A stretch of DNA of 41,288 nucleotides, from the IMG/VR virus record IMGVR_UViG_3300023171_000003, positions 1 to 41,288 of that record. One strand, given 5' to 3'. This document shows positions 987 through 41,288 of the stretch, in pieces (position 1 is the first letter of the stretch; every line of letters starts with the position of its first letter). The position numbers and the translations under genes were made by a program. Origin of the DNA: a virus. The notes below the pieces were generated by a model, which worked only from the letters and a program-made list of their open reading frames with translations, ran no database searches and was not told the origin of the DNA.

Positions 987-1448
987 ATGCGTCCCAAGTT
1001 CGCCACTCGCCAGTTCCTAGTCAGCTCCGAGCGGGTCCGCGACAACCTGCTGGCTGCTGTACGGAACATGCCAATCGACGCGAAGAAACCTCTTCAGGCA
1101 ATCCTGCGCGAAGAGGTGAAGGCTAGGAAGCTAGACCAGCAGGCACTCATGTTTGCTGGTCCATTGCTGGATATCTCTCGGCAAGCGTGGTTTGAAGGTC
1201 GCCAGCATAGCGTTGAAGTGCTTCATGAGTATTTCAAGCGCGAGCTACTTCCTGATGACTTCGACCCTGAGCTTTGCATTGAAGGCTACATGAAGTGGGA
1301 CGTTGATCCAGGCGGCAATCGTGTCCTTGTCGGCAGTACAAAGCAATTGACCGTAAAAGGCTTTTCGCAATACTTGGAGGCTGTGTTTGCCTTTGGTGCT
1401 GCGATGGGCGTTGAATTTCATGCGTCACCTAATGAGGGAAAATCATGA
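987..1448 (+). CDS. ninB: NinB/Orf-family recombination mediator
   Basis: Resembles lambda NinB: ...RKLDQQALMFAGPLLDISRQ... (lambda RSLDQNRKLWACLGDVSRQ) and ...GSTKQLTVKGFSQYLEAVFAFGAAMGVEF (lambda GQSTSRMRVGEFAELLELIQAFGTERGVKW). Confidence 0.7.
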   Translation: MRPKFATRQFLVSSERVRDNLLAAVRNMPIDAKKPLQAILREEVKARKLDQQALMFAGPLLDISRQAWFEGRQHSVEVLHEYFKRELLPDDFDPELCIEGYMKWDVDPGGNRVLVGSTKQLTVKGFSQYLEAVFAFGAAMGVEFHASPNEGKS

Positions 1449-1693
1449 GCAACGAGTGCTATTACAACGGGACAGCTGGGGTGGGCGGTGGCAACCCTGT
1501 GAAAACTCAAGCAGAACTTGTAGCAAAAATTAACGCAGCCGAAGTTCCAGCAGCATCCCGCTACCAACTGACGCACGCAGAAGCATTGGACCGTGCGCAA
1601 CTTCTGGCTCTATTCGATAAGCTGGACGCCCGTGGTCAGAAAACAACGCTGGCTATGCTCGCTGTCGCCGTGAAGCTTCATCCGAAAGCCTAA
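1445..1693 (+). CDS. Hypothetical protein (82 aa)
   Basis: ATGA overlap with ninB; compact operon context. Confidence 0.55.
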   Translation: MSNECYYNGTAGVGGGNPVKTQAELVAKINAAEVPAASRYQLTHAEALDRAQLLALFDKLDARGQKTTLAMLAVAVKLHPKA

Positions 1694-1694
1694 C

Positions 1695-2453
1695 ATGCCT
1701 CCGCTGATCCCGAATCCGTCCTCAGTCAAGCGCAATGCAGAGCTACGCCGCGTCTTGTCTGTAATGGCGCTAAGGCCCATGGGCATGACGACGAAGGAAA
1801 TGCGCGTAGAGCTTGATTTGCCGCTGATTCGCGTTCGTAACTACGTCGCGGTGATGCTGGAGGGCGGCGTGATCTACCGTCACAAGTCTAACCACGGCGG
1901 CAGCAAGAAAGTCTATCGTCACTGTGTAGCATTCGACCGCGACCAGATCGATGGCTTCCTTGCCAAGCTGGAAGCGCAATTCGCAAAGCCGCTCGGTAGC
2001 CAGCGCCAGGCCATCAGGATGCCTGAGTTAACAAAGAAGAAACCAACACAAAGGACTCGACCAATGAACGATACGCAAAAGAAAGTGCTCGAACACATGC
2101 GCAACATGTTCGACTTCATCGCCGCTCACCCTGGCTGCACGATGATGCAAATGTGCGCGCACTACAAGCAGGCTGCTTCGACCCTGCGCACACCATTGCA
2201 TCATCTGCGCGACGGTGGCTACCTTGAAGTCACCGAAGGAGCGCGCAGTAAGTTGGGCCAGTCGCCTAATGCCTACACTGTATCAGACAAAGGCCGGCCT
2301 AACGCAGCACCGCAGCGCAAGAAGAAGGGCGAGCGCGTCGCTAAGATCATCATCGATCCCAACATCAAGCAGGTCATAAAGAAGGCTAAGCAGCTTGGCA
2401 TGGCTCCGTATGCTGATCTGCCGGCAGGGTTCTTCGCCAGGTCTGCCGCATGA
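1695..2453 (+). CDS. Hypothetical DNA-binding protein with two winged-helix-like repeats (252 aa)
   Basis: Two similar segments (TTKEMRVELDLPLIRVRNYVAVMLEGGVIYRH and TMMQMCAHYKQAASTLRTPLHHLRDGGYLEV) separated by a basic linker. Confidence 0.55.
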   Translation: MPPLIPNPSSVKRNAELRRVLSVMALRPMGMTTKEMRVELDLPLIRVRNYVAVMLEGGVIYRHKSNHGGSKKVYRHCVAFDRDQIDGFLAKLEAQFAKPLGSQRQAIRMPELTKKKPTQRTRPMNDTQKKVLEHMRNMFDFIAAHPGCTMMQMCAHYKQAASTLRTPLHHLRDGGYLEVTEGARSKLGQSPNAYTVSDKGRPNAAPQRKKKGERVAKIIIDPNIKQVIKKAKQLGMAPYADLPAGFFARSAA

Positions 2454-3061
2454 GCCTATCCCGCAACAAGCAACTGGTGAGGACCGGGTTCAAGCCTCCC
2501 GAGCCAAAGCCAGAAGTTGGCCGGCGCAAGCGTAAATGCGCAGTTTGCAGAGAATCGTTTGAGCCACGCAACATGATGCACAAGGTCTGCAAGCCAGAAT
2601 GCGCAGTAACGCACGCAGAGGTCATCAGGAAGGCTCAGGAGCGCAAAGTAGACAGCGCACGCCGCACCGCACTAAAGAGCCGCGCAGACCACGCCAGGGA
2701 AGCGCAGACAGCTATGAATGCCTGGGTACGCTTCAGGGATCGGCTGGATGGCTGTATCTCATGCGACAAGGGACCAGACTGGCAAGGGCAATGGCATGCT
2801 TCGCACTTTATCAGCGTCGGGGCTTGCCAAACCACCCGCTTTGATCCTTCCAATCTACATAAAGCATGCAGTATTTGCAATAACCATCTTTCCGGAAATA
2901 TCCGATCTTATAGGCCTCGCCTTATCGCCAAGATCGGCCAGGTTGAGGTTGACCGCCTGGAAGGCTGGCATGAGCCTAAGAAGTTCAGCATTGAAGAACT
3001 TAAAGCCATCAAGGCGCATTACGTGGCAGCACTTAAAAAACTGAAGGAGCAACTGAAATGA
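2450..3061 (+). CDS. ninG: NinG/Rap-family structure-specific endonuclease
   Basis: About 200 aa. N-terminal Cys cluster (CAVCRESF...CKPEC) and C-terminal CISC...HASHF...CSICN motifs typical of lambda NinG. ATGA overlap with the upstream gene. Confidence 0.75.
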   Translation: MSLSRNKQLVRTGFKPPEPKPEVGRRKRKCAVCRESFEPRNMMHKVCKPECAVTHAEVIRKAQERKVDSARRTALKSRADHAREAQTAMNAWVRFRDRLDGCISCDKGPDWQGQWHASHFISVGACQTTRFDPSNLHKACSICNNHLSGNIRSYRPRLIAKIGQVEVDRLEGWHEPKKFSIEELKAIKAHYVAALKKLKEQLK

Positions 3062-3168
3062 CCCGCAACCTCGATGCCCTCCAAGACCTCAACTATCTGT
3101 ACTGGCGCATGACAGCTGTCCAATATCGCGGCCTGCTGCGTAAGTGTGGTGTTCGGCGTCTGAAGTAA
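3058..3168 (+). CDS. Small ORF (36 aa, MTRNLDALQDLNYLYWRMTAVQYRGLLRKCGVRRLK)
   Basis: Hand-translated. AAGGAG 8 nt upstream; ATGA overlap with the ninG stop. Confidence 0.4.
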   Translation: MTRNLDALQDLNYLYWRMTAVQYRGLLRKCGVRRLK

Positions 3169-3207
3169 TCGCCGATCTAGCGCACCATCAACCACCGAAA
3201 GGGAAAT

Positions 3208-3438
3208 ATGAAAATTGTACATGCGGAGTTCGGCAAGCCAAGCATTGACCTTGCTCCTGACTTTAGCGCTGTCTTGCGCGAACTGGCCGACGCGGTAGAT
3301 GCTGGCGAAATTGGCGGTGCTTGCGTCATCGTCGTCAGGAATGGTGAGTATGAGCTTCACTTCCCATCTAGTCTGTCGGAATCGCTCATCATGAGTACTC
3401 TGTTGCATCGCCGCGCCACAGACAAGTTTCTGGCCTAG
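3208..3438 (+). CDS. Hypothetical protein (76 aa)
   Basis: ORF with an AAAGGGA RBS. Confidence 0.5.
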   Translation: MKIVHAEFGKPSIDLAPDFSAVLRELADAVDAGEIGGACVIVVRNGEYELHFPSSLSESLIMSTLLHRRATDKFLA

Positions 3439-3442
3439 CATC

Positions 3443-3817
3443 ATGGACCGCATAGACGCAGTTCTAGCCGCTATGCCGGCTACCAGAGCCGAGATAATGG
3501 CGAAGACAGGGCTAACCAAGGGAGCCGTGCAGAACGCCGTAGAGAAGCTGCATGCGGCCCGTTGGTGCTATGTCTCAGGCTGGCGGCGGGAGAAGCGCAA
3601 CAACACGGGGACATTCGTGCAGCGCCTCTCTGCTGGGCCTGGAAAGGATCGCGCCTGCACGCTAAAGCCGCTCACGCAGAAGGAGCGCGACGATATGCGA
3701 CAAGCTCGCCTAGTCAAGTCTGGCGACATCGAGGAACGTCGGCGCGGAAATCTGATGCGCTACTACGAGCAGCGCGCAAAGTCGAGGAAGAACGATTGGC
3801 TTGGCCCTTTACGCTAG
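3443..3817 (+). CDS. Winged-helix protein (124 aa); candidate late-gene regulator/antiterminator by position only
   Basis: N-terminal wHTH-like segment (RAEIMAKTGLTKGAVQNAVEKLHAARW) and a basic C-terminus. Last gene before a promoter plus strong terminator, as for lambda Q. Confidence 0.55.
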   Translation: MDRIDAVLAAMPATRAEIMAKTGLTKGAVQNAVEKLHAARWCYVSGWRREKRNNTGTFVQRLSAGPGKDRACTLKPLTQKERDDMRQARLVKSGDIEERRRGNLMRYYEQRAKSRKNDWLGPLR

Positions 3818-4257: not shown

Positions 4258-4533
4258 ATGAAACTTTTAGAATATTTACAGATGAAATATGGACAGTCCG
4301 AGCCATCTGTAATGACGTGTTCGGAAGCGCAAGCGTTTGGCGTTAAATGGCCTCTTTCTGATGGCTGGCTTAAGCGTCACGGCAATCAAGTTCTTGACCC
4401 AAAAATGGCAGATGCTTTGATTGCAAGACTGCGTAAAAAGGCGGCAAGTAAGCCCCCATCAAATGGGACTGCCTTTTATTATTTGCGTGGCGCAGAAATC
4501 CTTGAACAGCATTATAAAAAGGCCTCAAAATGA
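4258..4533 (+). CDS. Hypothetical protein (91 aa), paralogous to the N-terminal domain of the HNH endonuclease at 38176-38823
   Basis: MKLLEYLQMKY...EAQAFGVKWPLSDGWLKRHG aligns with MNVLQYLQTKY...EAIAFGIPYPLKPGWLAKHG. AT-rich gene with no clear SD. Confidence 0.6.
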   Translation: MKLLEYLQMKYGQSEPSVMTCSEAQAFGVKWPLSDGWLKRHGNQVLDPKMADALIARLRKKAASKPPSNGTAFYYLRGAEILEQHYKKASK

Positions 4534-5222
4534 ACCTAAGTCTCCAAAACAATACAGAACAGACTATGACTAGCTTAGAGTTAGTCGAGTTTATCAATGA
4601 AGACCGCAAAACCGCATCGGCTGGCGACACGTTTAGCGTGCTGAGCCATTCGGACTTCTACAAAAAAGCGAAGGTTGTACTTGGTGAGGGTGTCGGAAAA
4701 TTTTCTGATACCTACCAGAACCCGCAAAACAAGCAGTTTTACCAAATCTACCGCTTCCCAAAGCGTGAAGCTTGCCTGATGGCGATGAGCTATAGCTACG
4801 AGTTGCAAGCCAAGGTTTTTGACCGGATGACAGCGCTTGAGGTTGCCGACCCGCTGGCTGGCCTTCCTGCTGAGCAGCGCGCTTTGATTGGTGTCATGCT
4901 GGATAACGCTGCTATCAAGGCTGAGCAAGCCGCACAAGCCGTCCTGATTGCTAGCCAAGCTGATAGCATCAAACGCCTGGAAGCGAAGCAGTCAGCCTTT
5001 GAGGATGGCGCTTCATACTTTACCGTCATAGGCTATGGAGTGCATCGGGGTATCTCGTTTGGCCTAACTGATGCGGGTACGCTGGGCCGCGCTGCTGCGA
5101 AGCTCAGCAAGGAAAACGGTATAGCCGTGGACAAAGTGAAAGATCCGCGCTTTGGTTCCGTCAACAGCTATCACGAGTCTATGCTTGATGCTGCGCTGGC
5201 TAAAATCCACGGGGGCATGTAA
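4530..5222 (+). CDS. Rha-family-like phage regulatory protein / antirepressor-like
   Basis: N-terminal TSLELVEFINEDRK...FPKREACLMAMSYSYELQAKVFDRMTALE matches the Rha pattern as I remember it. ATGA overlap upstream. Confidence 0.5.
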   Translation: MNLSLQNNTEQTMTSLELVEFINEDRKTASAGDTFSVLSHSDFYKKAKVVLGEGVGKFSDTYQNPQNKQFYQIYRFPKREACLMAMSYSYELQAKVFDRMTALEVADPLAGLPAEQRALIGVMLDNAAIKAEQAAQAVLIASQADSIKRLEAKQSAFEDGASYFTVIGYGVHRGISFGLTDAGTLGRAAAKLSKENGIAVDKVKDPRFGSVNSYHESMLDAALAKIHGGM

Positions 5223-5533
5223 TGAGCACTTTGCCTGAATGGTTGCCCCTTATCCCATGGCAGGGCTACGTTGAAATGCGTAAGAAGAAGCGCGCCGTAA
5301 TGACTGAACGCGCCATGGAACTGCGTATCGCTGATCTTGCTAAGCTGAAGGCTGAAGGCGAGGACATTGGCGCTGTGCTCGACCAGTCCACCGCAAACGG
5401 CTGGACTGATGTATATCCGCTGAAGGAGCGCCGCGCCACACCGCGCCAGTCGCCAGCCTTCGACAATTCGCGGCTTGGCAAGCACGGCCAGGCTACCGCT
5501 AACGCTGCACTTGATTGGCTGGAGGGGAAATGA
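5222..5533 (+). CDS. Hypothetical protein (103 aa); possibly a DnaD-like replication-organiser domain
   Basis: Pattern WLPLIPWQGYVEMRKKKRAVMTERAMELRIADLAKLKAEGEDIGAVLDQSTANGW is reminiscent of phage replisome-organiser C-terminal domains. Weak. Confidence 0.5.
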   Translation: MSTLPEWLPLIPWQGYVEMRKKKRAVMTERAMELRIADLAKLKAEGEDIGAVLDQSTANGWTDVYPLKERRATPRQSPAFDNSRLGKHGQATANAALDWLEGK

Positions 5534-5697
5534 GCGCTGACAATGACATTGTGAGATATGCACTTCGGATTGCAAAGCTTATGGAAGAAATTGAATATGA
5601 GCGCGCCAATCTCGATTACGACAAAGAGCGCATGAGCGATGCTACTCGGCGTATAGATCGACTAGCAAAAGCCATAGACGAGTTTCAATATGATTGA
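5530..5697 (+). CDS. Hypothetical coiled-coil protein (55 aa)
   Basis: Internal ATG with GGAGGGGAA RBS and ATGA overlap with the upstream stop. Confidence 0.45.
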   Translation: MSADNDIVRYALRIAKLMEEIEYERANLDYDKERMSDATRRIDRLAKAIDEFQYD

Positions 5698-6292
5698 TAA
5701 CCTTGATGAGAAGAAGCGCTTCGCAGGGTTGATCGTGGCACTGGCTGACTACTACAACAAGACCGCCTCCAAGGGCGTGATTGCGATGTACTGGGAGGGC
5801 TTGCGCCAATACGACTATGAAGCCATCAAAAAGGCTGCATGGGCGCATACGCAACTTCCCGACGAGGCTGGGCGCTGGATGCCACTGGTCAGCGACTTCA
5901 ACAAGATGCTGATCGGGCGCACGTCGGACCAAGGCCAGATTGCCTGGAGCAAGGTAGACCGCGCCGTTCGCACTGTCGGGCCTTACGCTGATATAGCCTT
6001 TGACGATCCTATCATTCACCGCGTCATTCAGGAAATGGGCGGCTGGGTGCATCTATGCGGCAAGGACGACAAAGAATGGCCCTTCACGGCCAAGGAGTTC
6101 GTCACTCGCTACCAGTCCTACAAGATGACCGGCGAGCTGCCAGAGCACGCGCCATACCTTACCGGCATCGCATCGTCGCAGAACCAGACCGCCGGCCATC
6201 AACAGCCACTGGAAGTACGCTTGCTAGGCAACGCAACGAAGGCCAAGCATATCGCCAGTGCGCGGAGTGTGGCGCAGGAACAACTTGAGTGA
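5690..6292 (+). CDS. Hypothetical protein (200 aa); possibly helicase-loader-like
   Basis: Loose resemblance to lambda P-type loaders (W..GL....YE.I..A...........RWMP...DF); function not established. Confidence 0.55.
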   Translation: MIDNLDEKKRFAGLIVALADYYNKTASKGVIAMYWEGLRQYDYEAIKKAAWAHTQLPDEAGRWMPLVSDFNKMLIGRTSDQGQIAWSKVDRAVRTVGPYADIAFDDPIIHRVIQEMGGWVHLCGKDDKEWPFTAKEFVTRYQSYKMTGELPEHAPYLTGIASSQNQTAGHQQPLEVRLLGNATKAKHIASARSVAQEQLE

Positions 6293-6309
6293 ATGCGCTG
6301 AAATAGCGC

Positions 6310-6338
6310 TTGCATGATGCGCTGACGTGGCGTATATT
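6310..6338 (+). promoter_or_regulatory. Candidate sigma70 promoter (TTGCAT-17 nt-TATATT)
   Basis: Good hexamers and spacing in the 99-nt gap before 6392, flanked by the 9-nt direct repeat ATGCGCTGA at 6293-6301 and 6317-6325. Confidence 0.45.
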
Positions 6339-6391
6339 ACGTACATGGGCAGCGCAACGGGCGCGGCGGAATTGGAGAAGCGGAGCACGAT

Positions 6392-6730
6392 ATGAATGCA
6401 GACTTTAAATACACCATCGAGCAGCCAAACATGGTCCGCGCCCACTTTGACGACTTCCAAGAAGTTACCGAGTACGTCGAAGAGTTGACCGCTAAGCGCC
6501 GCCCGTTCACATTCATCGACAACACCGCGTCGGCTGCTGCAAAACCAAAGAAGGCCAAGGTTCGCGGTATTCGTTGTGAGGCAAGCGGCTACCGTCTGGT
6601 AGGTCGCGACTTCTACAGCGTCACCGAGAAAGACGGCCAACACGTTTGTGATACATGCGGCAAGGCAATCAAAATCGCGGTTCGTAATGGTAACGAATAC
6701 ATCCCGGTCCACAACGAACCAACCGCCTAA
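6392..6730 (+). CDS. Hypothetical protein (112 aa), possible Cys-pair zinc ribbon at the C-terminus
   Basis: GGAG-type RBS; CEASG...CDTCGK. Confidence 0.55.
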   Translation: MNADFKYTIEQPNMVRAHFDDFQEVTEYVEELTAKRRPFTFIDNTASAAAKPKKAKVRGIRCEASGYRLVGRDFYSVTEKDGQHVCDTCGKAIKIAVRNGNEYIPVHNEPTA

Positions 6731-6769
6731 TCAACCCCGTCCGCTACGGCGGCATCATACGGAGCATCA

Positions 6770-6976
6770 ATGCCAACCACAGAAGAAATCAAGCGCGCCC
6801 GGAAAGCTGCTGGTCTCACGCAGCTTGAGGCTATCCGTGTGCTTCGACCTGGCAGCAAGACGGCTAGGACGTGGCTGACTTGGGAGACGAAGCCCGATAG
6901 CATGCCGCCAGAAATGTGGGAATATTTCCTGCTGAAGACTAAATCCGCCCGCCGTCGCGCTGGCGATAAAAACTAG
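6770..6976 (+). CDS. XRE-like HTH protein (68 aa)
   Basis: EEIKRARKAAGLTQLEAIRVL HTH signature; ACGGAG RBS. Confidence 0.55.
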   Translation: MPTTEEIKRARKAAGLTQLEAIRVLRPGSKTARTWLTWETKPDSMPPEMWEYFLLKTKSARRRAGDKN

Positions 6977-6986
6977 GGAGAATAAA

Positions 6987-7322
6987 ATGGGTGAGCCGCA
7001 TAAGTGGGCAGAAGTGATTAAAGCTGCAGCAGATGGCAAAGATGTAGAGCGATTTGAGCAGGGGGTATGGAAGCGTAAGGAAGGGTATTATGCAATACGT
7101 AATTGGCTTTGGGGTGAAAAACAACAACATCGTATCAAGCCCGAGCCAGTTTATCCTGTAACGCGGATCACACCTGAAGAGGCATATGAAATGCTAAAGG
7201 TGTGTGTAGAAAAAGTTGGGCGTATTGAATGGACGCGTGCTGATGACTTGGTATTGTTTGCCAACGCAGCGATCCGCCGCGCAATTGAAGACGGCGATGT
7301 CATCCTGCCGAATAAAGACTAA
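6987..7322 (+). CDS. Hypothetical protein (111 aa)
   Basis: GGGAGAA RBS; operon context. Confidence 0.55.
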   Translation: MGEPHKWAEVIKAAADGKDVERFEQGVWKRKEGYYAIRNWLWGEKQQHRIKPEPVYPVTRITPEEAYEMLKVCVEKVGRIEWTRADDLVLFANAAIRRAIEDGDVILPNKD

Positions 7323-7332
7323 GGGGAATAGC

Positions 7333-7908
7333 ATGAAAAAGATAAAATCTGTATTTCAACGAAACTACGATGGCAACCGCAAGGTTCGTGATGAAGTTGT
7401 CCCTGGCTCTGAATGGGTTCTATCTGGTGAGGGCATCGCGACTCGCAAGTATGATGGTATGGCGGTAGCAGTGATCGATGGCCAGCCATTCAAACGCTAT
7501 GACGCCAAAGCGGGCCGCACTCCACCGCCATCGTTCCGCCCAGCACAACCCGAAGCGGATCCGGTAAGCGGCCACTGGCCTGGATGGGTGCCAGCCGAAG
7601 GCAGCGATGCAAAACACGTTTTGAAGTGTTTGGCATGGGGCAGCGAATTCATATTCAAAGGCGGTCCTGTCCCGGATGGCACATACGAAGCATGCTCGCC
7701 GGAAATTGGAACACGCCATGGGGCAAACCCTGAGAATCTGAGTGGACCCCGACTATTCATCCACGGCGCTGATGTACTGGACGCCTTCCCGCGCGACTTC
7801 AGCGGCATTCGTGAGGCTCTCCGCGATAGTCCTATGGAGGGAGTGGTCTTCCATCATCCAGACGGACGCATGGCGAAGATCAAGAAATCAGATTTTGATT
7901 ATAGTTAA
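7333..7908 (+). CDS. Minimal ATP-dependent ligase-like nucleotidyltransferase (191 aa)
   Basis: Motif I KxDG (ATRKYDGMAVAV) and C-terminal EGVVFHHPDGRMAKIKK (motif IV/V-like). Start at the internal ATG after AAGGGGAA. Confidence 0.55.
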   Translation: MKKIKSVFQRNYDGNRKVRDEVVPGSEWVLSGEGIATRKYDGMAVAVIDGQPFKRYDAKAGRTPPPSFRPAQPEADPVSGHWPGWVPAEGSDAKHVLKCLAWGSEFIFKGGPVPDGTYEACSPEIGTRHGANPENLSGPRLFIHGADVLDAFPRDFSGIREALRDSPMEGVVFHHPDGRMAKIKKSDFDYS

Positions 7909-7917
7909 GGAGCCGGC

Positions 7918-8166
7918 ATGTACACCCAATGGATTATCGTTGTAGTAGCGCTCCTTCTCGGCGGCTACGGATTCCGCCAGATCCGCAAAGCTGGCGAGGA
8001 CATCACCGCAGAGAAAGAGCGCCATGCCTACGATGCACTGGTAAAGCGCCAGCAAGAGCACTCTGCCGAGCAAGCGCGCAAGCAGGCATTCAAGGACATC
8101 GGACCATACCTGCGGCGCGAGCTGAAGGATCACAGGAACCCAACGCGGCCAGGGAGTAAGGTATGA
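7918..8166 (+). CDS. N-terminally membrane-anchored protein (82 aa)
   Basis: AAGGAG RBS; TM segment WIIVVVALLLGGYGF followed by a charged tail. Confidence 0.5.
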   Translation: MYTQWIIVVVALLLGGYGFRQIRKAGEDITAEKERHAYDALVKRQQEHSAEQARKQAFKDIGPYLRRELKDHRNPTRPGSKV

Positions 8167-8492
8167 AGACGGATCGTGAGTTGTTGGAACTGGCAGCGAA
8201 AGCTGAAGGTCACGGCATCTGGATTGATGACGAAGGAAGCGGCTTGGTTTTCCTCAATGATAAATTTACCGGCGTCTTGTGGAACCCTCTTCATAACGAC
8301 GGTGACGCGCTGCGGCTGGCTTCCAAGTTGCGGTTAATGATCAAGCCCGGTAAGCATCTTGGCGATGGCTGCACGGTAGAATCTCAGCAAAGCGGTATCG
8401 CCGGCTGTACCTGCTTCCGAGACGACCCCGCCGAACAAATGCGGGTCGCAATTGTTCGAGCTGCCGCATCCATAGGGGAGCAGATGCCATGA
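8163..8492 (+). CDS. Hypothetical nin-region-type protein (DUF2591-like by pattern)
   Basis: MKTDRELLELAAKAEG...WNPLHNDGDALRLASKL...RVAIVRAAA pattern is common in lambdoid phages. Confidence 0.5.
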   Translation: MKTDRELLELAAKAEGHGIWIDDEGSGLVFLNDKFTGVLWNPLHNDGDALRLASKLRLMIKPGKHLGDGCTVESQQSGIAGCTCFRDDPAEQMRVAIVRAAASIGEQMP

Positions 8493-8884
8493 TCGGCCAG
8501 CATACGCCCGGGAAGATGGTTGCAAATGGTACAGAGGTATGGTCAGAGGATGAATGCGAAAGTTGCCATCCTATAGTCGGGTACGATTATGATAATCGTT
8601 CCTGCCGTCTGCCGGAGGAATTGGAGGCCAATGCTCGACGCATTGCCGCATGCTGGAATGCTTTTGATGGATATTCCACTAATGCTATTGAAAACTTGCA
8701 GTCGCTGAAGCAGTTTATACGTGATAAGGATAAGAAACTCACCGAAGCTCGCGCATTGCTAAAAGAAATAGTTGGAGATTGGGCTCCATTTATGGGAGCT
8801 ATTGAACTATGCGCAATAGATGGATGCTCTTGGTACGAGAGAGCTAAAAGCTATCTTGACGCATGCAATACGCTGGGAGAATGA
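8489..8884 (+). CDS. Ead/Ea22-like protein
   Basis: EANARRIAACWNAF motif (compare EANARLIAAAPEL in Ead/Ea22-like proteins). Confidence 0.45.
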   Translation: MIGQHTPGKMVANGTEVWSEDECESCHPIVGYDYDNRSCRLPEELEANARRIAACWNAFDGYSTNAIENLQSLKQFIRDKDKKLTEARALLKEIVGDWAPFMGAIELCAIDGCSWYERAKSYLDACNTLGE

Positions 8885-8885
8885 C

Positions 8886-9020
8886 ATGAAAGCTGCTCAT
8901 GTAGCCCGCATTGCGGAAATCGAGTATAGCAAGCTTATGCGCCGCATTCTTGATCGATTGGATGCTGGTGACTGGGATAAGTTCAACTGGGGTACTTGGA
9001 AGGGATGGAACAATATATGA
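8886..9020 (+). CDS. Small hypothetical protein (44 aa)
   Basis: Internal ATG of ORF 8820-9020, just after the upstream stop. Confidence 0.35.
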   Translation: MKAAHVARIAEIEYSKLMRRILDRLDAGDWDKFNWGTWKGWNNI

Positions 9021-9310
9021 GCGAACAATACAAAGACCGTCCAGCGCGATCAGTGGTTTGTGCTGCCAACAAATACGGCGATCTAGTTTTCATCGGAGTT
9101 CGCCACTTCTGCCCTGTGATGCAGTTCAACATGCGGACCCATGATATACCGGGTCTTCGCAGGACGCGAGGCGAGGTACAAGGATTCATCGACCAATTCG
9201 GCGTGTTCATGGATCGCAAAGAGGCAGCAATTGTTGCTAAGGAATCGGGGCAGCTTGCGCGCTACGGCGACAACTTCCCCGAAGTGTTGTTCAGCGAAGA
9301 CTTGTACTAG
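9017..9310 (+). CDS. Hypothetical protein (97 aa)
   Basis: ATGA overlap with the upstream gene; alternative starts at 8996 or 9005. Confidence 0.5.
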   Translation: MSEQYKDRPARSVVCAANKYGDLVFIGVRHFCPVMQFNMRTHDIPGLRRTRGEVQGFIDQFGVFMDRKEAAIVAKESGQLARYGDNFPEVLFSEDLY

Positions 9311-9318
9311 GAAAAACC

Positions 9319-9522
9319 ATGAACGCCGCAACTACCCTTCTCCACGACATGCGAGGCCAGCAACTGAAGGCCCTAGCACGCATCATAGGCGAGCTAAAGC
9401 CAGAGGACGCAGACCGCGTGCGGCGCTTTGCAACGCTGGCAGGACCGCTCTACGACACGCGCAACCTTAGCGATAAGTCGCTTGAGGAGATTGATGTGAT
9501 GACAGGAAGGTATTTTCAATGA
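9319..9522 (+). CDS. Hypothetical protein (67 aa)
   Basis: AGGAAAAACC RBS. Confidence 0.5.
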   Translation: MNAATTLLHDMRGQQLKALARIIGELKPEDADRVRRFATLAGPLYDTRNLSDKSLEEIDVMTGRYFQ

Positions 9523-9665
9523 GCCAAGAAGAATTATTTTTATGGTGTGAAGTTGGCGTAGGGGTAGGCGTAATATTCGGCATAATCGTCGGTCAAATTT
9601 TCAGTGAAATCTTTATCTGGAAGCGCCCGTGGCGACAAGCACTGAAATTCTGGAGGATGGAATGA
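9519..9665 (+). CDS. Small membrane protein (48 aa)
   Basis: Hand-translated MSQEELFLWCEVGVGVGVIFGIIVGQIFSEIFIWKRPWRQALKFWRME. ATGA overlaps at both ends. Confidence 0.4.
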   Translation: MSQEELFLWCEVGVGVGVIFGIIVGQIFSEIFIWKRPWRQALKFWRME

Positions 9666-9829
9666 CTACCGAAGAACATGAGAGGGCGCGCAGAGAACTC
9701 GGATTCACCAAACCGGACGACGAGCCGCGCTATACGGAGACCACCTACAAGACGGTAGATGGTGGTGAAATAGTAATACGAACTTCTGTGAATTTGGTGA
9801 TGCGCAAGATATTTACGAGGCCGATATGA
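9662..9829 (+). CDS. Hypothetical protein (55 aa)
   Basis: Internal ATG of the GTG-started ORF 9629-9829, coupled to the upstream stop. Confidence 0.4.
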   Translation: MTTEEHERARRELGFTKPDDEPRYTETTYKTVDGGEIVIRTSVNLVMRKIFTRPI

Positions 9830-10050
9830 GTGAGATTTCTTATTATAAAACGGTTAATTATTCATTTCAGATGCAAAATATGAAGCCGCGCATCAAGCTA
9901 TTGTCATGGCATAACGCAGGCTGGCGGCGAATGTGGATGTGCGGTGTTTCTACGATGGACCCATATGCATACGTTGCTGCTACGCCACAAGAAGCATATG
10001 CTGGCTGGAAAGCAAATCAGCCTGTTGACACCAAGAACAAACCACGATAA
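9826..10050 (+). CDS. Hypothetical protein (74 aa)
   Basis: ATGA overlap; last CDS before the long non-coding region. Confidence 0.5.
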   Translation: MSEISYYKTVNYSFQMQNMKPRIKLLSWHNAGWRRMWMCGVSTMDPYAYVAATPQEAYAGWKANQPVDTKNKPR

Positions 10051-10890
10051 CCTGAATCATCGACTGCATTGACGATAGCCCCGAAGCTGCGGCAGAGGGC
10101 GAAACCGGCAAGCGGCAAGAATTGTAGTAGTGCAAAGTAACAGGCAAGAAAATGGAAGTGGTTGCGCAGCATTAAGCAGTGCGCTGAGCGCGTGGTTCGA
10201 CTCCATGTCCGCAGTGACCGGCGCATCGGTCAATGAATTGCAGTAGTGCAGAGCCTGGCAACCAGACGCAGCTTTCCGAAAGGGATGGGCATTGTTTGAC
10301 TGGAAGCCAAATCCCGGCGACGCGGGGAGATAGCGAAGATGCAAAAGCGGATGCAGGCGGCAGGACCGCTCTGATACAGCGAGTAGCCCAAATGGTGTTG
10401 CATAGCAAGGCGCTGAAACTAGCCGACAGAAAATGCTGGCATCTGTTCACTATTAGCAAGAAGCTGTGCCATAGTCGGGCACGCCGGCAGCAACCGGCAT
10501 TGGTGAAACAGAGGGTATTCCGGGAACGGTAGAGCGGTCGTGCGGCACATGCCTCTAAGCATCGATACGTTGCGCCAAGGTTGAAAGACCTTGCCTCTGT
10601 TGTAATTAAGCTGCACTGACAAGGGATAAACTCAGTGCATCGCCTCACCCTCGTAAGGGGTGGCCTAACAAGTTTCACTTGGCATAGAAAGCGCTCCGGC
10701 AGGACCGGTCAAGCGGATTTATGCAGTCGTCAGAGGACGTGCACGAAATCTGATTCAGGTGAAACCTGTTAGGCGAATACTGTCAGAAGCTTCACCACTG
10801 ACTCGCCTATTCAGTTTCATGCGTCAGGCCTTCCCGATATTGGCCCGGGACTCCAAAGATCTTTGCCCGGCCACGCGCCGGGTTCTTTTT
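10051..10890 (+). ncRNA. Candidate large structured non-coding RNA or long structured leader/3'UTR; class not assignable by eye
   Basis: No credible ORF. Stems of 4-8 bp at 10354-10373, 10483-10498, 10576-10593, 10612-10639, 10692-10715 and 10771-10808. Small GAAA/UGAAA-loop hairpins at 10274-10285 and 10756-10768. T-loop-like GGTTCGACTCC. Ends in a canonical terminator. Confidence 0.35.
10865..10890 (+). terminator. Rho-independent terminator
   Basis: CCCGGC-CACGC-GCCGGG (6 GC pairs, 5-nt loop) followed by TTCTTTTT, 70 nt upstream of terS. Confidence 0.7.
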
Positions 10891-10960
10891 GTCTGCTGCT
10901 GTGATACACTTGCCGTATCGAAATCAATGAGGCTGGACAAGCTACGGCATCCAGGCAATC

Positions 10961-11434
10961 ATGACTAAGCAAGTTGCAGAGAAGAAGCCAAGAGGACGCC
11001 CGTCTCTCTACAAGAGCGAATATGATGAGCAAGCCCGCAAGCTTTGCCTCCTAGGCGCAACAGACCCGGAGCTAGCAGATTTCTTCGGCGTCAACATAGA
11101 TACTATCTACGAATGGAAGAATGTCCATGACAGTTTTTCCGATGCCATAAAAAGAGGCAAGATCCAAGCGGACTCAAATGTTGCTGATCGCCTCTATCAG
11201 CGCGCCATGGGATATGAGCATGCTGAGGTCGATATTCGCGTCGTTAATCAAGAAATCATCAAGACGCCAATCACTAAGATTTATGCGCCTGACCCTACGG
11301 CCGCTATCTTCTGGCTGAAGAACCGCCAACGTGCAAAATGGCGAGATAAAGTAGAGAGCGAGATTACCGGTGCAGATGGGGCTGACCTGATGGCCGGTAT
11401 CACGATTAAGCTTGTTGCTCCAAATGGAAGCTGA
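10961..11434 (+). CDS. terS: Terminase small subunit
   Basis: N-terminal KPRGRPSLY...ELADFFGVNIDTIYEWKNVHDSFSDAIKRGK HTH pattern typical of TerS; directly precedes and overlaps terL. Confidence 0.8.
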   Translation: MTKQVAEKKPRGRPSLYKSEYDEQARKLCLLGATDPELADFFGVNIDTIYEWKNVHDSFSDAIKRGKIQADSNVADRLYQRAMGYEHAEVDIRVVNQEIIKTPITKIYAPDPTAAIFWLKNRQRAKWRDKVESEITGADGADLMAGITIKLVAPNGS

Positions 11435-12668
11435 GTTTCCTGAGAAGCTAGGCTTCCTGTTCGCTCCTAAGCGCTACAAGATCATTCGCGGTGGACGCGG
11501 TTCAGGCAAGTCCTGGGGAGTCGCTCGCGCACTCTTATTGCAGGGCAGGGCAGGAAAGTTGCGCATTCTCTGCACTCGTGAGGTGCAGAAGTCTATCAAG
11601 GACTCCGTACACAAACTGCTGGGCGACCAGATCGCAGCAATGGGACTTGGTGGCTTCTACGAGATACTAGACGCTGAGATACGCGGCAAAAACGGCACCT
11701 CGTTCGTCTTCGCAGGTTTGGCTGGCAATACCATCGATTCGGTCAAGTCGTTTGAAGGCTGCGACCGCGTCTGGATCGAGGAAGGCCAGGCCGTCAAGAA
11801 GCGTTCGTGGGACGTGCTGATTCCTACCATCCGTAAGCCTGGCTCCGAGATATGGGTAACCTACAATCCCGAGCTGGAAAGCGACGACACGCATCAACGC
11901 TTTTTCACTGACGACGATGACACGACTGTTGTCGAAATGAATTATGTGGATAACCCGTGGTTCTCTGAGGTGCTGGATAAAGAGCGTCTTCGCTGTATGC
12001 AGCGCACGCCAAAGGATTACGACAATATCTGGCTGGGCAAGTGCAAGCCGGCGGTTGCTGGCGCTATCTACTATGACGAAGTTATCAAGATCGAGGACGA
12101 AAAGCGAATCTGCAACGTGCCATACGATCCGATGCTCAAGGTTCATGTTGTCTATGACTTGGGCTGGAATGACGCCATGGCAATCAGTCTGGTACAGCGC
12201 CAATCGTCTGAGCTACGCATCATTGAGTACATCGAAGATAGCCACAAGACGCTAGACCACTATTCCGCCATCCTCAAAGAGAAGCGTTACAACTGGGGTA
12301 AGGTATTCCTGCCACATGATGGCGAGCATCGCAACATACAGACAGGCAAGAGCGCGAAAGAGACGATGGAAGCGCTTGGCTGGGATGTGCTCATTACGCC
12401 GAACATGAGCGTTGAGGACGGCATCAGGGTCACGCGCATGACGCTAGGCCGCGTCTACTTCGACAAGACCAAGACAGAGCGCCTGATCCAATGCGCCAAG
12501 CGCTATCGTCGCTCAATCAACCAGCAGACGAATGAGCCAGGCGCGCCGCTTCATGATGAGTGGTCGCACGGTGCGGATAACCTACGTTATGTGTCAATCA
12601 ATGCCGACCAGATGACGAATGAGGAATGGGGCCAGAATCTGGCATACCCGAGCATGCGTAATGCTTAA
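11424..12668 (+). CDS. terL: Terminase large subunit (PBSX/Terminase_3-like)
   Basis: Walker A RGGRGSGKSW. Typical size and downstream nuclease half. ATG at 11424 preferred over the TTG at 11412. Confidence 0.9.
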   Translation: MEAEFPEKLGFLFAPKRYKIIRGGRGSGKSWGVARALLLQGRAGKLRILCTREVQKSIKDSVHKLLGDQIAAMGLGGFYEILDAEIRGKNGTSFVFAGLAGNTIDSVKSFEGCDRVWIEEGQAVKKRSWDVLIPTIRKPGSEIWVTYNPELESDDTHQRFFTDDDDTTVVEMNYVDNPWFSEVLDKERLRCMQRTPKDYDNIWLGKCKPAVAGAIYYDEVIKIEDEKRICNVPYDPMLKVHVVYDLGWNDAMAISLVQRQSSELRIIEYIEDSHKTLDHYSAILKEKRYNWGKVFLPHDGEHRNIQTGKSAKETMEALGWDVLITPNMSVEDGIRVTRMTLGRVYFDKTKTERLIQCAKRYRRSINQQTNEPGAPLHDEWSHGADNLRYVSINADQMTNEEWGQNLAYPSMRNA

Positions 12669-12681
12669 CCAAGGAGGAAGT

Positions 12682-12939
12682 ATGTGGAAACGTAATCCGT
12701 ACAGGAACCCATTGTGGTTTTTTTACAAACACGCATTCGGCTTCAATAATGGCGGTCGATACCTTAATTTCAGATATAACAGAGGTGAAAACGTTGATAT
12801 GAGGTTCTACCTATATTTCTTGGGACTTAGGTTCTCAGTCAGGCCCAAGATGTCCATGCCTAGCGACCAAGACATTAATTCCGAAATGGTAAAAGTCATT
12901 GAGCGGTGGGAAGCAAGAAGGAAAAAGGAGGAAGTATGA
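12682..12939 (+). CDS. Small hypothetical protein (85 aa), member 1 of an AT-rich small-ORF cassette
   Basis: Perfect AAGGAGGAAG RBS; internal ATG of ORF 12619-12939. Confidence 0.55.
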   Translation: MWKRNPYRNPLWFFYKHAFGFNNGGRYLNFRYNRGENVDMRFYLYFLGLRFSVRPKMSMPSDQDINSEMVKVIERWEARRKKEEV

Positions 12940-13085
12940 AGCTGTTCAAGAAAATATCTATTGGCTGGGTATTCAACGAAGGTGGTCGGCTATTGACGTT
13001 GAGTTATTTCCGTAGCTGGCCTAAAGGAAAGCGATTCCGTCTCTGGATGGGCTACAAGCGATTCAAGCGTGAATTCATCTTCTAA
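12936..13085 (+). CDS. Small basic protein (49 aa), paralog of 12682-12939
   Basis: Hand-translated MKLFKKISIGWVFNEGGRLLTLSYFRSWPKGKRFRLWMGYKRFKREFIF. Identical AAGGAGGAAGTATG initiation region; shared N.GGR.L...Y...RF.L..G..RF pattern. Confidence 0.5.
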   Translation: MKLFKKISIGWVFNEGGRLLTLSYFRSWPKGKRFRLWMGYKRFKREFIF

Positions 13086-13144
13086 TGCATAAATTACCAC
13101 CAACAAAGATTTCAGTGTAGAATTGCGCGAAATCGGGAGGAAAT

Positions 13145-13279
13145 ATGTTTAGCAAAGACGTATCTTGCAGTAGAAATGGCACAAACACTGTCATTACTCA
13201 ATACCGATTTATGGGTATTTTGCTGTACGAGAAAACGGTAGACATGTGGATTGCTCAGCATATTCATCATATGTCCTAA
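13145..13279 (+). CDS. Small hypothetical protein (44 aa)
   Basis: Hand-translated MFSKDVSCSRNGTNTVITQYRFMGILLYEKTVDMWIAQHIHHMS; GGGAGGAAA RBS. Confidence 0.4.
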   Translation: MFSKDVSCSRNGTNTVITQYRFMGILLYEKTVDMWIAQHIHHMS

Positions 13280-13321
13280 CTAAAACTTTCAGCGTATCGA
13301 TGTGAATCGCCCGCTAACCAA

Positions 13322-24041: not shown

Positions 24042-24922
24042 ACAACGGCATCTTTGTAGGCGAAACTCAGCCCGCATTGGTGCTGGGCCGCGTTGACATC
24101 ATCACGGCGATTACCGTATGGCGCAAAGATCCGAACGCCAAGTTCATCTACATCGAAGGCACGGCTGGCGGTGGTGGTGGCGGTGGTGGTAGTACTTCTG
24201 CTACGGGCGGCGGTGGAGGTGGTGGCAGCGCGAATTTTTCCGGTTTCGTACCAGCGGATATGCTTCCCGATACTGTTCTTGTCACACCTGGTAGTGGCGG
24301 TAGTGGTGGTGTAGGTAACACAAACGGCGTGAATGGTGGGATATCTACTTTTGGATCGCTTGTAACGGTCCCAGGTGGTAGCGGTGGTACATCAGGTGGA
24401 GTCGGCGGTGGCGGTGGTATTAATCCAACATTCAGCCCTATATTTAACGCAGTTATTGCGGTTGGCGGTCTATCCGGTGCTACTGGTGGTAGTGGCGCTG
24501 GCGTAGTTTCCGCCTCATCTACCACTGGACAAAATACTGGCGGCGGTAGCGGTGCTGGTACTGGCGCTGGTGGTGCTAGTGGATCAACTAGCTTTAGCGG
24601 TCTGCAATCCGCTCCTGGCAGCGCTGGCGGCCTTGCAAGCGGGACTTCTGGAGCAGATGGAACCGCGCCGTTTATCCCATTTGCTGGCGGCGCGAAGTTG
24701 GTCGCAATGCTGTCGTTCATCCGCAAAGCATTTGGTAATCCTGGCGGCGCAAGTGGTGGCGGTGGTGGCGGTACTGCTGGCGGCAATACTGCTGGCGGCG
24801 CTGGTGGTAATGGCACGGCTGGTTCTGGTGGTGGTGGTGGTAGCGGGCGCACAACTGGCGTTCCTGCGGCTGCTGGCGGCAATGGTGGCGACGGTTATTT
24901 CCGCGTTTATCAAATTATCTAA
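24038..24922 (+). CDS. Glycine-rich protein (294 aa), putative fibre component
   Basis: GGGGGGGG and GGGGGGG runs plus repeated GGxGG/SGG segments. ATGA overlap upstream. The antisense Pro-rich ORF is an artefact. Confidence 0.6.
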   Translation: MNNGIFVGETQPALVLGRVDIITAITVWRKDPNAKFIYIEGTAGGGGGGGGSTSATGGGGGGGSANFSGFVPADMLPDTVLVTPGSGGSGGVGNTNGVNGGISTFGSLVTVPGGSGGTSGGVGGGGGINPTFSPIFNAVIAVGGLSGATGGSGAGVVSASSTTGQNTGGGSGAGTGAGGASGSTSFSGLQSAPGSAGGLASGTSGADGTAPFIPFAGGAKLVAMLSFIRKAFGNPGGASGGGGGGTAGGNTAGGAGGNGTAGSGGGGGSGRTTGVPAAAGGNGGDGYFRVYQII

Positions 24923-38823: not shown

Positions 38824-38913
38824 AAAAAAACCCATGTGGTCGAAACAGAGGCGGTGATCGGAAAACCAGAACGGATGACTGGCATTGCGAAACTCTGCTT
38901 CGACCACATGGGT
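38824..38913 (-). terminator. Long hairpin (15 + 5 bp stem, 42-nt loop) plus U tract abutting the HNH start codon
   Basis: 38830-38844 pairs perfectly with 38899-38913, and 38846-38850 with 38893-38897. On the minus strand a run of Ts follows, then ATG. Confidence 0.55.
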
Positions 38914-38991
38914 CTTCCGTTCTTCTCTGAAACCATCACCACAACAGAATTCAGAACACAAATCATGGCACAGAACAATGTATTGCGCAAA

Positions 38992-40964: not shown

Positions 40965-41203
40965 GCTGCGCTCGCTTTGCGCTCTTTGACGCCTTCTACA
41001 GCATCACCTACAGCCAGCTTCAAAACATCGCCAGCGCCTTCATATACCTCCGCAATGCGAGCCAGATGGCAGGCTGCTTCAATGAGCGTTTGGAGCGGCG
41101 TTGCAGGATTAGGTGCTGTAGCAATGCCGCTTTCAAAGTCGGCGGTGGTGTTACTGAGATCCGATTTCACTGCAATATTGATCTTGACTTTTTTCATTTT
41201 CAT
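40961..41203 (-). CDS. Hypothetical protein (80 aa); its 5' end lies in the terminal repeat
   Basis: The start at 41203 corresponds to position 42 of the first repeat copy, so it follows gene 66-311 on the circle. Confidence 0.5.
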   Translation of the reverse strand: MKMKKVKINIAVKSDLSNTTADFESGIATAPNPATPLQTLIEAACHLARIAEVYEGAGDVLKLAVGDAVEGVKERKASAA

Positions 41204-41288
41204 TCCTTGTAGTGGTGGAACAGCGGTTAGACTTTGACGCCGGTAGCTCGGTCGCCATCCAGGTAAAAATCGTCAACTTCAAATTCTT
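41162..41288. repeat. Second copy of the 127-nt terminal repeat
   Basis: Identical to 1-127. Confidence 0.95.

Follow-up and report, generated by a model that had tools for sequence, protein, structure and literature searches.

The viral DNA recorded in IMG/VR as IMGVR_UViG_3300023171_000003 (positions 1 to 41,288; this whole stretch of 41,288 nucleotides (nt) is the window in what follows) carries a gene-free gap at 10051-10960, directly ahead of the terminase gene terS. We found that this gap is a modular promoter-to-terminator unit, composed of small conserved hairpin modules and transfer RNA (tRNA) relics instead of one giant folded RNA. A sigma70-like promoter (P1) and an intrinsic terminator (T1) bracket the gap, so that a transcript of ~0.83 kb is predicted. 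Our preferred reading, held with a little less than even confidence, is that the gap may serve the late operon (packaging and morphogenesis) of a lambdoid-type phage as its non-coding leader transcription unit, and that this unit works with antitermination.

A preliminary description of the same DNA had proposed a large structured RNA at this place. What it observed mostly holds, and the region is indeed non-coding, read on the plus strand, furnished with covarying helices, borne by phages and tied to tRNAs, but a single large ornate RNA is not supported. Among the alternatives named in that description, a long regulatory leader fits best; a pac/cos region fits poorly, since the same RNA modules stand before unrelated terS families.

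The gap is non-coding and its relatives vary in length

No credible coding sequence is present in 10051-10960, as the preliminary description had stated. Each reading frame is interrupted by 6-14 stop codons, the public gene call on the identical contig L241 leaves 792-1701 (the same gap) empty, the four longest open reading frames (ORFs) have no match in Pfam or PHROGs, and no gap ORF is kept among the homologues. The tblastx similarity between the gap and its homologues is equally strong in all six frames, which indicates that conservation lies at the nucleotide level, not at the protein level. All of these results argue against hidden small protein genes within the gap, a reading that we regard as scarcely credible although ORFs of 38-168 amino acids (aa) occur on both strands and L381 has a 26-aa, membrane-like ORF that overlaps the start of terS.

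The gap has relatives of similar position and differing content. Close relatives of terS from a large protein collection (L243, L244, and L245) have a gene-free gap of 0.97-1.5 kb before terS, with patches of collinear similarity, and scans with longer patterns added L299, L381, L416, L001, L441, L443, L446, L448, L450, and L161; a scan with 16-nt patterns gave mostly noise. With the 160 terS-related and the 80 terL-related loci, the gap has next to no DNA in common beyond a 25-nt hairpin. The length of the unit in the relatives ranges from ~0.2 kb (L001) to 1.5 kb (L245), and its modules, named Blocks A, B, and C (the last with the hairpins C1 and C2), spread independently: Block A was found in 15 distinct loci, 9 of which also have Block B; C1 occurs in 4, and C2 in ~49 contexts that are mostly unrelated. 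The unit carries one to three called tRNA genes in 6 of 13 members, and in L243 an uncalled low-GC ORF for an HNH endonuclease lies inside the gap (~3180-3560). No helix spanning the whole region is kept among the homologues, the longest conserved pairing closing ~100 nt. This range of sizes, the independent modules, the interruptions by tRNA and HNH genes, and the lack of a spanning helix together argue against a single RNA of the GOLLD or ROOL kind. In L161, a GIY-YIG ORF follows directly after the terminator, from 4220 onward. A long-range partner for the invariant 5' sequence of the unit was also considered; the 9-nt complement at 10722-10730 of the window is kept by no homologue, and this candidate was rejected.

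The preliminary description had taken the density of hairpins to exceed chance, and folding energy gives no support for this. The sub-window z-scores run from -2.2 to +1.2, and the whole region scores -2.6 and -2.9 for the plus and minus strands, respectively (only 20 shuffles), near-equal values that show no strand preference. Thermodynamic stability was dropped as a sign of structure because it was not significant. Likewise, no known RNA family could be assigned to the gap, the GOLLD, ROOL, HEARO, OLE, and raiA models included. Searches against Rfam 15 returned 0 matches for the whole window at the gathering score, only terminator look-alikes and no tRNA for 9900-11100 at E ≤ 10, and only tRNAs for six homologous loci at E ≤ 1. 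ARAGORN called 0 tRNA and 0 transfer-messenger RNA (tmRNA) genes in the window, and the gap had no blastn match in 50,697 phage records. A tmRNA, Y-RNA or other tRNA-like domain around the T-arm-like hairpin of the gap was dropped for want of model support, as was an origin from a diversity-generating retroelement (DGR), a retron, or a repeat, the region having no second copy elsewhere in the window.

Hairpin modules, the linked micro-protein and tRNA-like segments

The hexamers and spacing of P1 are kept in 6 homologues despite differing spacers and upstream genes, with the form TTGAC[CT]/TTGAT[AC]-16-TAGAAT in L243, L457, L001, L441, and L450, and TTGACG-17-TACATT in L443; a P1-like promoter ahead of Block A scores at least 9 out of 12 in 12 of the 15 members. 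The first ~20 bases of the predicted transcript are invariant and open Block A, whose hairpin (hairpin P1, not to be confused with the promoter) covaries. In 13 aligned sequences its helix is 96% paired, with compensatory changes at all 5 pairs, and its covariation score of 0.887 compares with 0.217 in shuffles (0 of 500 reach 0.887) and at most 0.27 in slid controls; the search pattern had left the stem positions unconstrained. The model built on Block A (R1) matches the window with 78 bits (E 8e-16), as a sole copy oriented with the genes. When 240 unbiased terS/terL loci and 47 C2 loci were searched with this model, only L001 and L161/L163 matched, which indicates that the Block A family is rare. 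Block A is followed by a terminator and then by terS/terL in 11 of 13 loci, at a distance of 130-1340 nt.

An arginine-rich micro-protein gene lies just upstream of promoter P1 in the window and in L243, L244, L245, L299, L381, L416, and L448. Its motif is confined to Block A loci, plus L237, and contigs fetched through the micro-protein alone as an independent test carry Block A in three of three cases, with 58-65 bits. In L457, the stop codon of the micro-protein gene falls inside the -35 hexamer of P1. The gene is usually missed by gene callers, and the micro-protein has no match in Pfam or PHROGs; as read from the sequences, synonymous codon variation among the homologues indicates a real peptide. 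By its place, which is that of Q in lambda, the micro-protein is a candidate trans-acting partner of the unit.

Block B, found also in L457 and L459, consists of two small hairpins behind a conserved sequence. In the 7 sequences compared, the stem of its second hairpin (hp2) reads GCCGG, ACCGG, GCCAG, UGUCGG, GGGAGG, or CGG, and the loop stays RRGCAA. A tRNA-like cloverleaf at 10442-10512 was tried and dropped; its closing stem is not conserved, and only the two hairpins remain.

In Block C, hairpin C1 differs from that of the relatives at two compensatory pairs. The statistics on C2 rest on distinct contexts from a pattern scan that left two pairs unconstrained; of 45 such contexts, 43 retain both pairs. 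In the main C2 variant, one pair is G.U; on the opposite strand it would become a mispaired C.A, which indicates that the unit is read on the plus strand, in line with the orientation first proposed. L381 and L244 carry other stems at the position of C2. Of 49 contexts, 35 have the long stem abutting C2, compared with 10% of control positions, and the stem was also recovered by folding. Together, C2 and a perfect long stem form a widespread two-stem element in high-GC phage contigs (L246-L292, L173, L179, L219, and others); a GAAUGCGCAGGCUGAUGCGC hairpin often follows this element, and no Rfam family matches. C2 was also considered as a signal flanking tRNA genes and rejected, since a called tRNA lies nearby in only 5 of 49 contexts.

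Covarying base pairs, on which the preliminary description had made a structured RNA depend, were thus found in the form of compensatory changes in helices of Blocks A, B, and C. As for the individual helices that it listed, those at 10483-10498 (hp2) and 10612-10639 (C1) and the terminator are conserved, and C2 is likewise real and conserved; the helix at 10576-10593 and others lack comparative support, as no homologue covers them. The helix listed at 10771-10808 is part of an acceptor/T-arm-like minihelix.

This minihelix is one of two tRNA-like segments in the gap. Its position is that of the 3' end of a tRNA-Thr in L299, where the conserved GTTTCATG directly follows the tRNA-Thr, and its 5' strand competes with the long stem of Block C, as read from sequence and fold. 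The other segment is the lone T-arm-like hairpin, which is flanked by the two copies of the 21-nt duplication; its T-loop-like GGTTCGACTCC at 10194-10204, pointed out earlier, is unique in the window, with 0.01 copies expected by chance. Both the minihelix (10770-10813) and the segment 10117-10253 are putative tRNA relics. T-arm motifs (GGTTCGAnTCC) also occur within tRNA-like sequences in L245 (5150-5900), L452 (3150-3330), L255, and L288, where ARAGORN calls either no tRNAs or oversized ones (94-97 nt); some of these sequences are enclosed by a long ACCACAC...GTGTGGT stem. These sequences could be tRNA-like RNAs of an unusual or insert-bearing kind.

Such relics invite the explanation that the gap is a graveyard of decayed tRNA genes and accessory remnants at a recombination hotspot between early and late genes, in which the promoter and terminator would derive from a former tRNA operon and the remaining sequence would have no function. 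The intact tRNAs of relatives at the same places, the mosaic content with its HNH and GIY-YIG endonuclease insertions, and the unremarkable folding energies are consistent with it. However, Blocks A, B, and C persist in phages whose neighbouring genes are unrelated or share no more than 50-80% identity, purifying selection on the RNA structure is indicated by the compensatory changes and the invariant loops, and Block A is co-inherited with the micro-protein. We therefore consider this explanation improbable.

Table 1. Positions of the gap elements and of neighbouring genes in the window
Feature	Position	Strand	Description
NinB	987-1448		Upstream of the gap
NinG	2450-3061		Upstream of the gap
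Arginine-rich micro-protein gene	9662-9829	+	MTTEEHERARRELGF...; 55 aa here, 22-24 aa in most relatives
P1, sigma70-like promoter	10025-10053	+	TTGACA-17 nt-TAACCT; predicted start near 10060
Block A, conserved 5' leader motif	10047-10129	+	Invariant ATCGACTGCATTGACGRTA, hairpin P1, then GAAACCGGCAAGCGGCAAG with repeated RCGGCA
Block A hairpin P1	10078-10081 with 10097-10100	+	15-nt conserved loop CGAAGCUGCGGCAGA
Internal 21-nt duplication	10117-10137 / 10233-10253	+	AAGAATTGTAGTAGTGCAAAG / ATGAATTGCAGTAGTGCAGAG; 2 copies, none expected in shuffles
Lone T-arm-like hairpin	10191-10207	+	CGTGG-TTCGACT-CCATG
Hairpin	10216-10231	+	GACCG-GCGCAT-CGGTC; kept in L299, L243, L457
Block B core	10456-10498	+	GCAAGAAGC and hairpins hp1, hp2
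Block B hp1	10466-10470 with 10478-10482	+	
Block B hp2	10483-10487 with 10494-10498	+	Loop CAGCAA
Block C	10612-10774	+	C1, C2, and long closing stem
Hairpin C1	10612-10639	+	GCACUGA/UCAGUGC here; GCGCAGA/UCUGCGC in L244, L245, L381
Hairpin C2	10646-10662	+	CACCCU-CGUAA-GGGGUG
Long stem directly after C2	10663-10670 with 10767-10774	+	GCCUAACA with UGUUAGGC; closes ~96 nt
Acceptor/T-arm-like minihelix	10770-10813	+	UAGGCGA (10770-10776) with UCGCCUA (10803-10809); inner hairpin 10782-10802; then UUCA-GUUUCAUG
T1, intrinsic terminator	10865-10893	+	GCCCGGC-CACGC-GCCGGGU, then UCUUUUUGU; terminator scan (10865-10883 plus T-run)
Extended -10-like element, possible promoter P2	10902-10910	+	TGnTACACT
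Hairpin over the terS ribosome-binding site	10932-10937 with 10950-10956	+	Covers AGG (10953-10955)
terS	10961-11434	+	Directly downstream of the gap
terL	11412-12668	+	After terS

Passage into the late genes and genome setting

The terminator said to close the gap was found again by our scan and is conserved among relatives: T1 keeps both its position and its sequence in L245 and L299, and its position in L243 and L457. It ends ~70 nt ahead of terS. Within this short stretch, the TGnTACAMT element is invariant in five of five homologues, and the hairpin over the ribosome-binding site changes from GCUGGA/UCCAGC to GCGGGA/UCCCGC in L243, which is compensatory. These ~70 nt are also found ahead of an unrelated terS of the Sf6 type in L457. 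The terminator ends ~15 nt before the terS start codon in L001, L441, and L459, and a terminator follows C2 and the long stem 10-20 nt before terS in L173, L179, and L261. Between those terminators and terS there is no room for a promoter, so that read-through is required.

In the late-operon leader that we favour, host RNA polymerase would start at P1 (10025-10053), near 10060, and transcribe Block A first, then the hairpin modules of Blocks B and C together with the relics of tRNA genes. Transcription would stop at T1 (10865-10893), and the resulting RNA of ~0.83 kb would probably be cut into smaller stable pieces, as each module ends in an AAGAAUU-like sequence of the kind cut by RNase E. 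The late genes would be reached once the polymerase has been made resistant to termination. Two candidate signals can be suggested: (a) the Block A hairpin with its co-inherited micro-protein, as a pair similar to N/nut or ConAn1/conAn2, and (b) the C2 hairpin with the long stem, likened to the two-stem put RNA. In the relatives, the same leader would also be the expression site for one to three phage tRNAs, which would have decayed in the present phage. What the comparison shows is that the gap lacks coding, that it is conserved with covarying local helices, how the genes are ordered, and that the unit co-occurs with the micro-protein and with terS/terL. Promoter activity, termination, processing, and every step of antitermination are steps that we infer from the sequence.

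A more specific form of this reading is a so far undescribed bipartite antitermination module of environmental lambdoid phages, in which the micro-protein (22-55 aa), encoded directly ahead of a constitutive late promoter, would bind the Block A hairpin on the nascent RNA and polymerase would then read through the terminator or terminators guarding terS, the leader doubling as a plug-in site for tRNAs and for the put-like element of C2 and long stem. We put this forward as a doubtful, speculative model.

Several points weigh against a late-operon leader with antitermination. The -10-like element after T1 and the full promoter consensus (TTGACA-N16-TACAAT) that follows the terminator in L459 mean that terS may have a promoter of its own, in which case the stretch from P1 to T1 would stand apart as an insulated RNA gene cluster. 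Only ~15 distinct Block A sequences are at hand, and these were partly picked by eye after a pattern scan. C2 is also found upstream of YqaJ-like exonuclease genes and other non-late genes, and L237 has the peptide without Block A. Among the ORFs upstream of P1 that were scanned with Pfam and PHROGs (987-3817, 4258-7908, 8163-8884, and 8996-10050), there is no Q, N, or other known antiterminator family. To our knowledge, a peptide of 22 aa is far smaller than any known antiterminator.

The first of these points leads to the main rival, an autonomous stable-RNA/tRNA cassette, in which P1 to T1 would form an independent non-coding cluster whose products, structured RNA modules together with tRNAs in the relatives, act in trans, and terS would be transcribed from its own P2. 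We judge it rather unlikely, though it has much in common with the data: the unit has a promoter at one end and a terminator at the other, a conserved -10-like element or full promoter stands just after T1, tRNA genes lie between conserved modules in 6 of 13 members, the helices covary, and C2 with the long stem looks like an excision stem around a variable insert. Comparable cases are GOLLD and ROOL near phage tRNA islands, with tRNAs sometimes in the linker of GOLLD (PMC12286853, PMC5737381), the stable RNAs of the T4 tRNA region, and the StxS regulatory RNA. However, the lack of promoter space between terminator and terS in L001, L441, L173, and L179 is not explained by such a cassette, and the strict placement before terS/terL, whatever the terminase family, points to a role in cis. 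Neither does it agree with the lack of a conserved global architecture, with a module content that varies over 0.2-1.5 kb, or with the lack of an Rfam family match.

The placement of the unit also bears on a packaging (pac/cos) region, in which terminase would bind the conserved elements as DNA sites. The position directly upstream of terS, the short repeats (RCGGCA and the 21-nt repeat) that could be protein-binding sites, and the high conservation of the 70 nt after T1 would all suit such a region. Yet the unit is found upstream of terS/terL across differing terminase families (Terminase_3, Terminase_6, and Sf6-type terS), and Blocks A and B, like the post-terminator element, recur ahead of terS genes that are unrelated to each other (the types of the window, of Sf6, and of L299/L381). 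Because pac specificity lies in terS, this disfavours a packaging site. In addition, the helices covary to keep pairing instead of sequence, the strand-specific G.U pair included, and the ends of the assembly, which closes into a circle, fall in another part of the genome. A pac/cos region is accordingly very improbable.

The window is a complete phage genome of ~41.16 kb. Its ends carry an exact direct repeat of 127 nt (1-127 and 41162-41288), from which we judge that the genome is circularly closed or terminally redundant. The layout is lambdoid and was recognized by Pfam and PHROG matches to NinB, NinG, O-like, and Ant-like genes together with a leftward Erf gene. After terL, an SU10-type portal gene and an SU10-type capsid gene follow on the plus strand, so the gap sits precisely at the junction of the nin-like region, with its last small early-right genes, and terS-terL-portal.

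Some further features of the genome were noted. The ORF at 7216-7908 (+) matches PHROG 14301 'RNA ligase' (E 1e-72) and has no Pfam match; a link between this RNA-repair-type enzyme and the tRNA relics of the leader is possible. A second ORF-poor stretch of low G+C content (~46%) occupies the interval between terL and portal (12669-13321); it has no Rfam match, and the public gene call puts three tiny ORFs of 85, 49, and 44 aa there. Families of Gly-rich, collagen-like GGN/GGT repeats lie within a structural (tail-fibre-like) gene at 24150-24900. In the leftward early region, a 24-nt inverted repeat (38827-38850 and 38893-38916) with 92% complementarity and a spacer of 42 nt may represent an operator or a terminator.

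Likeness to known systems and significance

The promoter PR' of lambda is constitutively active and its transcription is terminated at tR' unless Q acts; the leader RNA is processed by RNase E and can be regulatory (PMC7547250). Like the PR'-6S/StxS-tR' region, the present unit separates the nin-like early-right genes from late genes on the same strand, and it shares, at the sequence level only, the order of a sigma70-type promoter, a non-coding RNA, and an intrinsic terminator with no gene between. In both systems a small regulator gene abuts the promoter, so that the order of micro-protein and P1 mirrors that of Q and PR', and the RNA may be processed into stable RNA, as is proposed here (PMC7547250). 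Stx phages have tRNA genes in the same neighbourhood, as do the relatives of the present unit. There are also differences. The leader is 0.83 kb long here and ~0.2-0.26 kb in the lambda type, no Q-family protein was found and a novel micro-protein holds its position, and the conserved elements are covarying RNA helices instead of a Q-binding site on DNA, which in the lambda type goes with a sigma-dependent pause close to the promoter. Furthermore, the tRNAs are situated upstream of the terminator instead of downstream, and a second promoter may exist after the terminator.

The put structure consists of two abutting stem-loops. Both RNA-only and protein-plus-RNA antitermination systems are known (PMC11658703), and N/nut, ConAn1/conAn2 of pLS20, put of HK022, canT of Tn916, and EAR resemble the present unit in placing a structured RNA soon after the promoter and before terminators, at the head of a long mobile-element operon. 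Block A with its co-inherited arginine-rich peptide would suit the protein-plus-RNA type. C2 with the long stem has the shape of put, which acts in cis without a phage protein; this abutting pair is present in 35 of 49 contexts and precedes terminators in L173, L179, and L261. No sequence or model similarity to these elements was found in a search of Rfam, which holds EAR. Hairpin P1 of Block A, with a stem of 4-5 base pairs (bp) and a 15-nt loop, is unlike boxB, which has a 5-bp stem and a GNRA-like pentaloop, is accompanied by boxA, and is bound by a protein with an arginine-rich motif. C2 has a 6-bp stem and a CGUAA pentaloop, and no boxA was recognized. A literature search for the C2 sequence found nothing.

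Other likenesses concern phage RNAs that lie near tRNAs. T-arm and acceptor-like elements could recruit tRNA-processing enzymes. Similar to the stable RNAs of phage tRNA clusters, such as species 1 and 2 of T4, the non-tRNA RNAs of the present unit would be co-transcribed with phage tRNAs, but there is no sequence relationship to those RNAs and the window is without an intact tRNA. GOLLD and ROOL are likewise non-coding RNAs of phages and prophages that occur beside tRNA genes or among them, and their conserved domains are connected by variable linkers in which tRNAs may lie (PMC12286853, PMC5737381); in contrast to them, the present unit has no conserved multi-helix core or pseudoknotted architecture, its smallest form is ~0.2 kb, and their covariance models fail on it.

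The unit is known in kind, as a phage late-operon leader and a tRNA-associated non-coding region. What appears to be new are the particular RNA motifs, the way in which they are arranged as modules, and the micro-protein linked to them, none of which is in Rfam, Pfam, or PHROGs. The example also calls for caution, as a long hairpin-rich gap beside terS does not have to be a single giant RNA. Block A, Block B, and C2 with its stem, three motifs absent from Rfam, can be used to annotate seemingly empty gaps ahead of terminase genes, and the tRNA islands of these phages would be housed within the late-operon leader. If the favoured reading is true, an RNA-based or peptide-plus-RNA late switch would join the short list of N/nut, Q/qut, put, EAR, ConAn, and canT, and it would occur in uncultured lambdoid phages without a recognizable Q. 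The interest of the unit would rise considerably if peptide-RNA antitermination were confirmed: the micro-protein and Block A would then be a new regulatory pair, accompanied by a new family of phage structured RNA modules.

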